A program made the translations under genes and the position numbers. This document shows positions 38,112 to 39,107 of a stretch of 64,000 nucleotides of DNA, in pieces. Position 1 is the stretch's first letter, and the number at the start of each line of letters is the position of its first letter. The notes beneath the pieces are model-generated. The model worked only from the letters and a program-made list of their open reading frames with translations. It had not been told where the DNA came from and made no database searches. Origin of the DNA: Escherichia phage AV108; sequence record OR352938.1. One strand, 5' to 3'.

Positions 38112-38303
38112 TTAGATTCCGGCGATCCTGCATAGAGTTCTTGTATTAGCACCAATAAGGATAGCATTAACGACAACCATTCCCCAATCAACCCACTGAT
38201 TATTATAAATGCTAAACCCGTTTGCAAGACCAAATACAAGCATTCCGGTACACATACTCAGAGCAATAATCAACATCACGGTAAAACCAAATGCAAATTT
38301 CAT
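38112..38303 (-). CDS. Small membrane protein (63 aa)
   Basis: Two hydrophobic helices. Confidence 0.45.
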   Translation of the reverse strand: MKFAFGFTVMLIIALSMCTGMLVFGLANGFSIYNNQWVDWGMVVVNAILIGANTRTLCRIAGI

Positions 38304-38304
38304 A

Positions 38305-38571
38305 TTATTTTCCTTTTCTCTGTTTACGTTTATAAAAGTAATACATTACCTCATCACGTCCGGTGATCCAACATGCTAGGGCGGTAAACAGGTTTACAAT
38401 TCCCAACACACCTACTGACGCGGCGCTGTCAACAGACATAGGAACAGTAAAGGCCATAGCTAACATAGCAACGCCACAAATGACATTAAGCACCATTATA
38501 ATAAGACCGAAGAAAACCATTGTCAATCCTCCGACACAAGAAAACCAACAATCACGCCAGTGATAAGACAT
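38305..38571 (-). CDS. Small membrane protein (88 aa)
   Basis: Hydrophobic helices, basic C-terminus. Confidence 0.45.
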   Translation of the reverse strand: MSYHWRDCWFSCVGGLTMVFFGLIIMVLNVICGVAMLAMAFTVPMSVDSAASVGVLGIVNLFTALACWITGRDEVMYYFYKRKQRKGK

Positions 38572-38714
38572 GATGCGCCGCTAATCAGACAACCCGCACC
38601 AAGTGATTCCCACCAGATCAGAGAAGCGACAATAACACAGAATCCCCATACTACCGCAATCACAACATAGGCAAGGGTCGCCCAAAACATATATTTGTTC
38701 ATAATAAATCCCAT
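38523..38714 (-). CDS. Small membrane protein (63 aa)
   Basis: Hydrophobic. Confidence 0.4.
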   Translation of the reverse strand: MGFIMNKYMFWATLAYVVIAVVWGFCVIVASLIWWESLGAGCLISGASCLITGVIVGFLVSED

Positions 38715-38887
38715 TCACCAAACAAATAAGAAAAAAGCCATATCAACAGAAACGAGGCAATTGATCCGGCAAGCAAAATGATATTAGAGAATCCACCGTC
38801 TATCCAGGCGACAAAACAGAATACGCTAGTATAGAAGCATAAACCCATTACAAAGCATACTATAAGCAACCATAGATAAAACGCCAT
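38699..38887 (-). CDS. Small membrane protein (62 aa)
   Basis: Hydrophobic. Confidence 0.4.
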   Translation of the reverse strand: MAFYLWLLIVCFVMGLCFYTSVFCFVAWIDGGFSNIILLAGSIASFLLIWLFSYLFGEWDLL

Positions 38888-38948
38888 AGAAAGTCCTCCA
38901 GCGAGATAAATTAGTGCGGGTAGTGGAATGTACTACCCGCTTTGTTAA

Positions 38949-39107
38949 TCAACGCAGAGCTTCTTCTAGCGCGATCCCAAACCATCCACAAACAACGCCC
39001 ATACAGACAGCTACAAGAAGATTCATTCTCTCTTTAGGGATCATTGCAATCATAACAACAACCATACAGAAAGCCATTACTATTGAAGTTAACATTTGTT
39101 CAACCAT
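38949..39107 (-). CDS. Small membrane protein (~52 aa; coordinates approximate)
   Basis: Hand-translated MVEQMLTSIVMAFCMVVVMIAMIPKERMNLLVAVCMGVVCGWFGIALEEALR; below track cutoff. Confidence 0.35.
   Translation of the reverse strand: MVEQMLTSIVMAFCMVVVMIAMIPKERMNLLVAVCMGVVCGWFGIALEEALR

Follow-up and report, generated by a model that had tools for sequence, protein, structure and literature searches.

The five small genes and their neighbours

The window (the whole 64,000-nt stretch of DNA analysed here, from Escherichia phage AV108, record OR352938.1) is 99.3 per cent identical to Shigella phage Sf20 and belongs to Krischvirus, the RB49-like relatives of T4. Krischvirus phages are used and proposed for therapy against E. 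coli and Shigella. As a preliminary description of this DNA had reported, five small ORFs follow one another between 38112 and 39107 and encode strongly hydrophobic products, and Pfam and PHROG matches bear out its naming of the adjoining gene as an M15 endolysin (Peptidase_M15_4, E = 4.4e-12; PHROG endolysin, 7.5e-69). The same description had placed the array downstream of the endolysin. This is wrong: because the minus strand carries all the genes here, all five lie immediately upstream (5') of it in the sense of transcription. We refer to them in order of transcription as E, D, C, B, and A, which correspond to RB49 ORFs 107, 106, 105, 104, and 103. Coordinates are given in Table 1.

Table 1. 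Genes and sequence elements of the array, the adjoining island, and the endolysin locus (positions in the window)
Feature	Position	Strand	Description
Sigma-70-type (T4 early-type) promoter	40680..40708	-	TTGACA-17-CATAAT with A-rich upstream tract; 11/12 match; intergenic
p112, p111 + p110	39723..40302	-	60 aa, 65 + 65 aa; further members of the island, all three tiny and with two helices
Gene E (RB49p107 orthologue)	38949..39107	-	52 aa; basic loop (PKER) and two hydrophobic helices; transcribed ahead of the other four
GC-rich hairpin in E-D spacer	38916..38940	-	Fold -24.4 kcal/mol, z -5.3; terminator-like match on both strands
Gene D (RB49p106)	38699..38887	-	62 aa; two helices, with neither Lys nor Arg in the protein; SD GGAGGA
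Gene C (RB49p105)	38523..38702	-	59 aa; two helices; start overlaps the stop of D (ATGA)
Gene B (RB49p104)	38305..38520	-	71 aa; two helices and a strongly basic C-terminal tail, YKRKQRKGK
Gene A (RB49p103)	38112..38303	-	63 aa; two hydrophobic helices, one strong and the other weaker; SD AAGGA
Late-promoter-like box TCTAAATA	38109..38116	-	28 nt 5' of the endolysin ATG
Leader hairpin	38071..38118	-	Endolysin SD and AUG base-paired to the arm holding the late box
M15 L-alanyl-D-glutamate peptidase endolysin (EndoRB49 orthologue)	37692..38081	-	Soluble; no signal or SAR sequence
GC hairpin	37647..37677	-	Directly 3' of the endolysin stop, 5' of the vs.8 SD; -21.1 kcal/mol, z -3.7

The size range first given for the five products (52–88 aa) holds at its lower end. 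The 88-aa ORF was over-extended, since an ATG at 38520 preceded by GGAGGA yields the size in Table 1, and both the RB49 annotation and the PHROG profile agree with this shorter form. Overlapping stops and starts had been described along the array, and only D and C overlap in this way; C and B are 2 nt apart and B and A 1 nt apart. The spacer between E and D is 61 nt long and contains a conserved GC hairpin, setting the first gene apart from the other four. All five genes have a Shine–Dalgarno sequence (SD) and an ATG at proper spacing. In E the SD (AAGGTG) is 6 nt 5' of the ATG and 2 nt past the stop of p108, the SD of B (GGAGGA) falls within the final codons of C, and the stop codon of A falls within the late-promoter box of the endolysin gene.

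Topology prediction had been proposed as a check. Kyte–Doolittle profiles show two hydrophobic helices in each of the five, so the description of 'one or two' keeps its second option and loses the first. The proteins consist almost wholly of these two membrane helices, with loops of at most 11 residues; in A the helices are linked by a conserved loop (NGFSIYNNxWVDW). AlphaFold models B as a two-helix hairpin (helices 2–25 and 30–69, pLDDT 80) and A as two helices at low confidence (pLDDT 66). The membrane-protein nature and two-helix topology of the products are supported by these predictions. For B, the basic C-terminal tail and the positive-inside rule predict an N-in/C-in orientation. A is predicted to share this orientation, and E to have its loop inside.

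The array of five stands as a set of genes, but its extent was drawn too narrowly. Three more tiny genes further along belong to the same island, with p111 and p110 fused into one 131-aa ORF in this window, and another run of four or five tiny two-helix genes lies at 41875–43154. From its sequence, the region between dmd and the endolysin gene would encode about a dozen mini-proteins and might be called 'hyperplastic' in T4 terminology. T4 had been said to have nothing equivalent here. In fact, T4 e occupies the syntenic position 5' of vs.8 and is itself preceded by e.2, e.3, and e.4 (one, two, and two predicted membrane helices, respectively). Like the five, these are predicted membrane ORFs in a leftward early block just upstream of an endolysin gene. 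Unlike the five, they are larger (102–130 aa, with soluble tails) and have nudE between them and e, and no sequence similarity was found between the two sets. As a whole, the earlier observation is partly confirmed.

Conservation, selection, and relatives

Of 58 public Krischvirus genomes, 20 were compared; A, B, and C are intact in all 20, E in nineteen, and D in seventeen. These twenty isolates and five metagenomic genomes of greater divergence keep the array in the same order, and each of the twenty-five has A, B, and C intact. D is deleted in ELT4, frameshifted in PHB13, and rearranged at its N-terminus in ECD7, and its SD is lost in E26. The in-frame pN/pS values are 0.22 for A, 0.08 for B, 0.22 for C, 0.44 for D, and 0.24 for E, compared with about 0.7–2.6 in the two shifted frames. 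Constraint is thus weakest on D, and on B it is as strong as in neighbouring soluble proteins; the C-terminal half of B is invariant even when the divergent clade is included. Judged by these comparisons, the five genes are under purifying selection. In the genomes compared, A, B, and C are core genes, always intact, and D, and to a lesser degree E, are dispensable.

We consider it very improbable that some or all of the five are nonfunctional, either as chance hydrophobic ORFs in AT-rich DNA or as decaying remnants. D lends this explanation some weight, with its losses in 3/20 genomes, its weak constraint, and its omission by several annotators. In addition, a codon-aligned antisense ORF (plus strand, 38209–38379) also stays open and mimics low pN/pS, so the strand is not fixed by pN/pS alone. 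On the other side, all five start signals lie on the same strand as the entire gene block, the A–B–C trio has no broken copy in twenty-five genomes, pN/pS is lowest in the sense frames, the substitutions are conservative, and the antisense ORFs are without an SD. Antisense ORFs were also considered as genes in their own right and rejected: one has stops in 11/20 genomes, one is lost in the divergent genomes, and one is open but SD-less. The low pN/pS of antisense frames is an expected artefact of their codon alignment with the sense frames.

Searches of Pfam, PHROGs, NCBIfam, and PADLOC gave no informative above-threshold match for any of the five, and the PHROG families to which they belong (PHROG 16035 for E) are of unknown function. 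No homologues outside the clade were found by a distant DNA search or by word-indexed protein searches. For B, an exhaustive HMMER profile search of 1.84 billion representatives returned no relatives outside its own cluster; the relatives of C and A in the databases are all at least 76 per cent and at least 86 per cent identical, respectively. On the strength of these searches, the five are orphans restricted to the Krischvirus clade. Rfam gave no match for the RNA elements of the region. Tandem duplication was examined by pairwise Smith–Waterman comparison (300 shuffles) of the five and p110–p112. No significant pair was found, and the array is therefore not a paralogous family; only the two alleles of p110 scored strongly against each other.

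D, E, and p111 show presence/absence and frameshift polymorphism and p110 occurs as two alleles, a pattern that fits accessory genes. The region has the features by which variable regions of novel ORFs are recognized in T4-like phages: the ORFs are small, clade-restricted, and variable between isolates, and they lie in a leftward block from dmd to vs.8 with an early-type promoter upstream.

Transcription of the array and the endolysin leader

The five genes share their leftward block with orthologues of the T4 early genes regB, vs, vs.6, vs.8, and dmd. Novel ORFs of T4-like genomes appear to be co-expressed with early genes (PMC1524935). The nearest strong promoter upstream of the array, at 40.7 kb, has the same form as the early promoters annotated in RB49, and by its sequence and position it likely starts the unit p113...E(-D-C-B-A). 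The hairpin between E and D keeps an 8-bp stem core across the 20 genomes and the divergent clade, with a variable loop, and one GenBank record has a terminator annotated somewhere within the matched region 38082–39130. Its fold and conservation make it likely to be a leaky terminator or an mRNA-stabilizing structure. It could also be a full terminator; no promoter was found after it, toward D-C-B-A. An internal promoter-like site, TTGACA-17-TATTAT at 38526–38498, was judged a chance occurrence because the divergent clade does not share it.

The endolysin gene that follows has its own late-promoter-like box and a start-masking leader. EndoRB49 is a characterized enzyme (PMC10487532), and the closest relatives of the AV108 endolysin outside Krischvirus are found in small P2-like or temperate phages (60–67 per cent identity). 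The TCTAAATA box is identical to one annotated as 'late RB49 promoter' in the RB49 record. Neither the 20 genomes nor the divergent clade show any change in it, whereas the coding positions that flank it vary; the number of late-box motifs in the window is not above chance. No other T[ACGT]TAAATA box was found on the minus strand between 38117 and 39781. The leader hairpin folds at -12.6 kcal/mol (z -2.8), compared with -12.5 kcal/mol (z -3.3) in RB49, and is both kept and stronger in the divergent clade (-18.2 kcal/mol, z -4.9).

The leader of T4 gene e, whose translational control was described by McPheeters et al. 1986 (reviewed in PMC3014915), folds analogously. At both loci the SD and AUG are sequestered by a hairpin whose 5' arm contains a late-promoter box. 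Going by the motifs and folds, the two would also share their logic, with read-through early transcripts silent and late ones active. They differ in that the M15 peptidase is not homologous to the T4 enzyme and that the box here is TCTAAATA and not TATAAATA. In evolutionary terms, a non-homologous endolysin has taken the place of T4 lysozyme and appears to be controlled in the same way, by a late promoter set within a hairpin that masks the start.

Put together, the early sigma-70-type promoter would drive the array, reading through a leaky hairpin into D-C-B-A, which would form a compact unit with partial translational coupling. Transcription would continue into the endolysin gene, where the leader hairpin would hide the ribosome-binding site and AUG. 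Endolysin would be made only later, from its own late promoter, whose transcript would be without the 5' arm of the hairpin. The late box and the start-masking hairpin of the endolysin gene suggest that the genes upstream are transcribed at a time when lysis must not happen. Early timing of the five is thus implied by promoter-like motifs and by the logic of the leader.

Several smaller observations concern the same transcripts. The GC hairpin 3' of the endolysin gene is annotated as a terminator in G5211 and G2248. Together with the E-D hairpin it brackets D-C-B-A and the endolysin gene, and the bracketed stretch is readable as one functional mRNA unit. A motif after the hairpins, CTGGAGNACTTT, was considered as a repeat; it has one exact copy only and does not define a family. 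A perfect TATAAATA at 41883–41876 (minus strand) could also send late transcripts across the region.

Lysis, exclusion, and other candidate roles

The preliminary description had offered two interpretations, lysis accessories of the holin, antiholin, or spanin type and small superinfection-immunity proteins. As a whole, this interpretation is partly supported. The first option is not borne out, and a lysis role for the five is unlikely: elsewhere in its genome RB49 encodes a T4-type holin (t), antiholin (rI, RB49p086), and spanin pair (pseT.3/pseT.2), as well as rIIA/B; in Pfam, PHROGs, and NCBIfam, no match of the five to a holin or spanin family passes the threshold; and none has a lipobox or a periplasmic domain. 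The second is mildly favoured because no homologue of T4 imm or sp was found in the Krischvirus sequence examined.

The most developed form of the lysis interpretation would make the five a timing module for the horizontally acquired M15 endolysin, with one of them (B is the best candidate) as a holin- or pinholin-like depolarizer and the others as antiholins or modulators alongside T. The genes are tightly packed, co-oriented with the endolysin gene, and adjacent to it, within the bracket of the two hairpins, and 2–3-helix holin-type ORFs usually precede relatives of this endolysin in P2-like phages. Like class II holins and pinholins such as phage 21 S (71 aa), B has 71 aa, two helices, and a charged C-terminus and is encoded near an endolysin gene; its predicted orientation and very basic tail complete a generic class II holin look, and it has sub-threshold matches to the Pfam families Phage_holin_3_5 and 3_6 (E 0.03–0.36). 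However, these matches score 11–15 bits against gathering thresholds of 27–28, as is typical of hydrophobic bias, and neither a PHROG lysis family nor NCBIfam adds to them. Unlike the class II proteins, B has no family membership, conserved dual start, or late-promoter box, and its neighbouring endolysin, unlike those of pinholin systems, is not SAR-type and would be translationally uncoupled, in a phage that already has a T4-type holin, RI, and spanins. The endolysin is soluble and so would not be released by a pinholin. On the minus strand, up to 39781, the five are preceded by no late box, and the endolysin gene would be uncoupled from them by its own box and hairpin. Nor do the five resemble the holin-type ORFs upstream of 79 endolysin homologues. 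We therefore regard such a module as improbable. It is B alone that combines a membrane helix with a charged C-terminus (tail KRKQRKGK); the ends of C and D are acidic or uncharged, and E has its basic loop. A lambda-S-like dual start in C (MNKYM...) was discarded, its second Met being Leu in the divergent clade.

A holin transferred horizontally together with the endolysin was sought with tblastn and profile HMMs for all five, covering every ORF of the 79 endolysin-homologue loci, the T4 e region, and 100 kb of RB49; nothing scored below E 0.06. The five are absent beside the endolysin homologues of these 79 other viral loci, and one Slopekvirus that has an M15 endolysin lacks such an array. 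An RI-type antiholin would have a SAR helix and a periplasmic domain, and none of the five has a soluble domain. That any of them is a spanin-type outer-membrane disruption protein has next to no probability and is already contradicted by their sequences. Nearness to the endolysin is all that recommends it, whereas the Cys contexts (LSMC, MGLC, VAVC) contain no lipobox, no periplasmic coiled-coil domain is found in any of the five, and pseT.3/pseT.2 provide a pair elsewhere in RB49. For annotators, the case shows that a small membrane ORF near an endolysin gene is not thereby a holin.

With moderate confidence, we read the five as genuine, separately evolved, early accessory inner-membrane proteins of a Krischvirus-specific variable region, and not as lysis apparatus, a role that t, rI, and pseT.3/pseT.2 would fill from elsewhere in the genome. 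Each of these 52–71-residue proteins would insert in the host inner membrane, and early in infection the five would bind targets there or modify them. Superinfection exclusion or envelope protection, which Imm and Sp provide in T4, would be the most plausible role that we can infer. T4 Imm is an 83-aa inner-membrane protein encoded between genes 42 and 43, and T4 Sp is periplasmic. Neither imm nor sp had a match in about 131 kb of Krischvirus sequence, the search leaving aside some 33 kb of mostly structural genes, and the best tblastn hit for T4 Imm (word size 2; window and RB49 loci) was E 1.6, compared with 1.5e-14 for the dmd control. By this search, Krischvirus has no recognizable imm and the role may be vacant. 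The five resemble Imm as very small, helical inner-membrane proteins of a T4-type phage, early-expressed if their predicted timing is right. They differ from it in sequence and genomic position; A, B, and C show no sequence similarity to Imm and no Pfam match. In Imm-type exclusion, an established mechanism, a small inner-membrane protein binds the pore-forming domain of the tape-measure protein and blocks genome entry, and HK97 gp15 and similar small inner-membrane proteins likewise block incoming phage DNA via the tape-measure protein (bioRxiv 10.64898/2026.03.06.709160). The HK97 gp15-type proteins share with the five their small size, helical inner-membrane character, and, putatively, exclusion, but they are expressed from prophages and no homology to the five was seen.

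A more specific proposal, which we put forward only tentatively and think rather unlikely, is that the A–B–C trio, with D and E optional, is a Krischvirus-specific inner-membrane module that either replaces Imm/Sp or provides a second, T-independent control of membrane integrity. As an Imm/Sp replacement, it would mean that unrelated proteins block the tape-measure channel or the tail lysozyme of superinfecting phages; as a T-independent control, it would adjust the time at which the acquired M15 endolysin gains access to the wall. Either would add new families of phage effectors of 59–71 residues with no relatives among 15 billion predicted proteins. Within the sizeable block of Krischvirus early genes to which they would belong, the five are a compact, constrained, and genus-restricted set of membrane mini-proteins. 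They offer a tractable place to ask how a T4 relative without imm/sp protects the infected cell and how tiny viral proteins target host membrane machinery.

It is possible, though again not probable, that the five are early membrane proteins with other targets, such as host transporters, proteases, sensor kinases, or membrane-based anti-phage effectors. This explanation shares the structural and timing evidence for accessory proteins. Genus restriction, presence/absence polymorphism, and allelic replacement are the pattern of counter-defence loci, and this region resembles them in all three. In bacteria, small membrane proteins often work by binding to larger ones (PMC12648545). Against other targets, the five match no PADLOC or known anti-defence family, and A, B, and C are always present and strongly constrained, above all B, which a conserved target fits at least as well. 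Such a target might be the injection apparatus of the phage itself or a core protein of the host.

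Layout and coding status of the five genes

By megablast, the region 37600-39500 matched 58 phage records, all of them Krischvirus (RB49-like Straboviridae) and at least 90% identical over the full length, with Shigella phage Sf20 as the top match (99.3% identity). A more sensitive blastn search with 38082-39130 returned the same 58 records and no match outside Krischvirus. In the RB49 annotation the endolysin is RB49p102, and the five tiny membrane-protein genes A, B, C, D, and E correspond to the hypothetical proteins RB49p103-p107; the Sf20 and W115 records note 'predicted membrane protein' on several of these orthologues. 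The minus strand carries every gene in this part of the window, so A-E lie upstream of the endolysin and not downstream of it, as the preliminary description had placed them. Junctions are tight, with a 4-nt ATGA overlap at D/C, a 2-nt gap at C/B, and a 1-nt gap at B/A. The 88-aa ORF reported earlier is B taken at the full length of its open frame; the ATG at 38520, which has a Shine-Dalgarno sequence (SD), gives the 71 aa of the RB49 annotation, and the PHROG profile agrees in covering residues 18-88 of the 88-aa frame. The array itself is real, but its orientation was wrong and its sizes and measures partly so.

Features of the endolysin locus: genes, spacer, and terminal hairpin in order of transcription, followed by regulatory elements
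Feature	Position	Strand	Details
p108	39424-39110	-	first in order of transcription
E	39107-38949	-	52 aa; SD AAGGTG, normal spacing
E-D spacer	hairpin 38940-38916	-	61 nt between E and D; GC hairpin
D	38887-38699	-	62 aa; SD GGAGGA, normal spacing
C	38702-38523	-	59 aa; SD GGGA within ATGA overlap, normal spacing
B	38520-38305	-	71 aa; SD GGAGGA, normal spacing
A	38303-38112	-	63 aa; SD AAGGA, normal spacing; 30-nt spacer, then endolysin
Endolysin	38081-37692	-	129 aa
Hairpin after endolysin	37677-37647	-	followed by vs.8
Sigma-70-type promoter	40708-40680	-	TTGACA-17-CATAAT; nearest strong one upstream; intergenic, behind an A-rich tract
Late box	38116-38109	-	TCTAAATA; directly before endolysin start, overlaps A stop codon
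Leader hairpin	38071-38118	-	predicted RNA fold

Across twenty aligned Krischvirus genomes, A, B, and C are always intact. E is intact in nineteen (frameshift in pEJ01) and D in seventeen, with a deletion in ELT4, a frameshift in PHB13, and an N-terminal rearrangement in ECD7; in E26 the SD of D is deleted. We conclude that D is the most dispensable of the five. The pN/pS ratio (Nei-Gojobori, all pairs) is 0.22 for A, 0.08 for B, 0.22 for C, 0.44 for D, and 0.24 for E, compared with 0.02 for the endolysin and 0.08 for the soluble proteins next to them, p108 and p109. In the two shifted frames it is 0.74-2.64. A caveat is that ratios below 1 (0.19-0.59) also occur in the codon-aligned antisense frame, whose wobble positions are shared. 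One antisense ORF (38209-38379, +) is open in all genomes but has no SD, and the remainder carry stops in 11/20 genomes or are lost in divergent genomes. In the divergent clade, five metagenomic genomes more distant from the window than the aligned isolates, the order and sizes of A-E are unchanged, at identities to the window of 84-89% (A), 80-87% (B), 72-83% (C), 87-89% (D), and 65-67% (E). All five are genuine protein-coding genes, we conclude, and non-coding status is all but ruled out for A, B, C, and E.

The 71-aa protein B is labelled 'tail length tape-measure protein' in the PHB13 and ELT4 GenBank records, evidently an automatic mis-annotation. Hit summaries show the same label in this region for ELT3, JEP8, and KMB43, making five records in total.

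Protein features, relatives, and the surrounding island

Two hydrophobic segments are found in each of A-E (Kyte-Doolittle, 19-residue window), the second in A being visible only with a 15-residue window. AlphaFold2 places helices at residues 2-25 and 30-69 of B (mean pLDDT 80) and, with low confidence, at 2-33 and 36-61 of A (pLDDT 66). With K/R at each end and a polar aromatic loop (NGFSIYNNxWVDW) between, A is predicted to be N-in/C-in. The strongly basic tail of B (YKRKQRKGK) predicts a C-in topology, and the loop of E, where its basic residues sit (PKER), would face inward. C carries a single Lys close to its N-terminus and its end is acidic, and D has neither Lys nor Arg. The C-terminal half of B (GIVNLFTALACWITGRDEVMYYFYKRKQRKGK) is the same in the window and in both genomes compared from the divergent clade, and changes only at scattered positions among database relatives; its first helix varies conservatively. 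We also considered A-E as paralogues and rejected this, as no pair beats shuffled controls.

Each protein falls in its own small PHROG of unknown function, and none has an above-threshold match in Pfam, NCBIfam, or PADLOC. Word-indexed searches, which covered 5.8 billion proteins, returned clade members only (at least 80% identity for B, 86% for A, and 76% for C), and an exhaustive HMMER profile search with B (1.84 billion cluster representatives, ~15 billion proteins) only its own cluster and one fragment. Searched with profiles of A-E, neither the ORFs around 79 endolysin homologues nor the T4 e region nor 100 kb of RB49 gave a match. By these sequence comparisons, the exhaustive search detects no relative of B, and the word-indexed searches none of A or C. 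A-E are real, constrained, clade-restricted genes, each for a predicted two-helix membrane protein. Lineage-specific small early membrane ORFs of this kind are ordinary for a T4-type genome, though unusually dense here.

Further tiny ORFs with two predicted helices (72, 64, ~75, 56, and 52 aa) form a second run at 41875-43154 (-), flanking dmd (42783-42986); the one at 41875-42093 (-) ends in a basic tail resembling that of B. Together with p110-p112 and A-E, this run makes about a dozen membrane mini-genes within 5 kb. In their midst lie p108 and p109, soluble, nearly invariant, and without family assignment; p108, which starts with GTG, and the 3' end of p109 share 44 nt (39381-39424, -). 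At 39931-39935 the window has A5, versus A4 in 14/20 aligned sequences (the other five are without this stretch), which fuses p111 and p110 into one 131-aa ORF with four hydrophobic helices (39723-40118, -). The endolysin SD shows a similar difference, G7 versus G5 (~38088-38094), and both reflect either true slippage or errors in sequencing homopolymers. A T-run in codons 6-8 of p111 (40096-40100, -) is T5, T6, or T7 by isolate, with a frameshift in 5/20. Genomes of the JSE/Makalu/SSG23 type lack p111, and their p110 is a replacement allele with only ~31% identity.

The endolysin and candidate roles for A-E

The endolysin is the characterised L-alanoyl-D-glutamate peptidase EndoRB49 (PMC10487532), and its N-terminus has no hydrophobic stretch. 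Its closest relatives outside the genus (60-67% identity) lie on 20-60-kb contigs and in P2-like phages, whereas the version in other T4-like genera is only ~46% identical, which points to an independent acquisition. One P2-like phage, Escherichia phage 520873, has the order holin/antiholin, endolysin, and DUF2570 protein, the last possibly an i-spanin. By a crude test, ORFs of 100-130 aa with two to three predicted helices precede the endolysin in 58 of 79 other loci; these have no relation to A-E. Klebsiella phage PMBT1 (Slopekvirus), which has an M15 endolysin, carries no membrane mini-gene array upstream of it.

One of the first readings of A-E was as lysis accessories, an interpretation that we find unsupported. 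They sit on the endolysin's strand, upstream of it, and share no ancestry with one another or with known lysis proteins, and a complete canonical T4-type lysis gene set lies elsewhere in the genome. Since RB49 encodes holin t (RB49p254), rI (p086), the spanins pseT.3/pseT.2 (p222/p221), and rIIA/B, the holin, antiholin, and spanin roles are already filled. A part in lysis timing is improbable, and a spanin function is all but ruled out for A, B, C, and E. T4 e is syntenic with the endolysin (vs.6, vs.7, vs.8, denV, ipII, ipIII, e, nudE, e.2...e.8), and the statement that T4 has nothing equivalent overlooked the uncharacterised membrane ORFs e.2, e.3, and e.4 upstream of its endolysin (one, two, and two predicted helices), although these are larger than A-E and unrelated to them.

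A tblastn search of the window together with RB49 1-60.5 kb and 114-164 kb (~131 kb) gave no match to T4 Imm or Sp, while the Dmd control scored 1.5e-14; Krischvirus seems to be without recognisable versions of both T4 superinfection-exclusion genes. Imm acts by binding the pore-forming domain of the tape-measure protein (bioRxiv 10.64898/2026.03.06.709160), a precedent for exclusion by small proteins of the inner membrane. A role for A-E in superinfection exclusion or envelope protection, also suggested in part by the preliminary description, is a possibility that we hold with low confidence. That they modulate host membrane proteins or serve counter-defence is rather unlikely.

In six JSE-type genomes, the endolysin is directly followed by an inserted gene of 576 nt for an HNH/AP2-type homing endonuclease (equivalent to window ~37690-37780), and diverged sequence takes the place of the last ~28 endolysin codons, a pattern that homing-associated co-conversion would be expected to leave. 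A different HNH-like ORF is found in the window instead (35953-36546), between nrdC.11 and vs.6.

Transcription and the endolysin leader

The nearest strong upstream promoter matches in form the early promoters annotated in RB49, and more terminator-plus-promoter pairs are found at 41.7 and 43.7 kb. The hairpin between E and D (-24.4 kcal/mol, z -5.3) keeps its stem while the loop varies. Only a poor U tract and no recognisable promoter come after it; we read it tentatively as a leaky terminator or a stabiliser. The GC hairpin between the endolysin stop and the vs.8 SD (-21 kcal/mol, z -3.7) and the E-D hairpin bracket D-C-B-A-endolysin.

The octamer of the late box also occurs in the RB49 record, where it bears the annotation 'late RB49 promoter'; the two 'hypothetical late promoters' given there are of the TGTAAATA type. 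The motif's count is not above chance, and the argument rests on where the box lies, how well it is conserved, its identity to the RB49 late box, and the fold. The leader ATCTAAATATTATCACTCACAAAGGGGG..TGAATA(A)TG does not vary across 25 genomes, although flanking codons do, and in the predicted leader hairpin the late-box arm pairs with the endolysin SD and AUG. Fold energies are -12.6 kcal/mol (z -2.8) in the window, -12.5 (z -3.3) in RB49, and -18.2 (z -4.9) in the divergent clade, where a C.A mismatch becomes a C-G pair. Folding the T4 gene e leader likewise recovered its classical structure, which leaves early read-through transcripts translationally silent and late ones, starting inside the hairpin, active (PMC3014915). 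Common to both systems is a late box in the 5' arm of an SD/AUG-pairing hairpin, although the enzymes are unrelated. This apparent T4 e-style control on a non-homologous endolysin is more surprising than A-E themselves; in the review cataloguing e-leader structures, RB49 and phi-1 appear only under 'no apparent gene e' (PMC3014915).

If this reading of the leader is right, transcripts through A-E would run into the endolysin gene when the enzyme must not be made, which argues for A-E belonging to the early programme. With moderate confidence, we infer that A-E are expressed early and that the endolysin is translationally uncoupled from them. Early expression would fit the general finding that novel ORFs of T4-like phages are co-expressed with early genes (PMC1524935). 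In the endolysin leader of PMBT1, a segment upstream of a CATAAATA box is predicted to pair with the SD.
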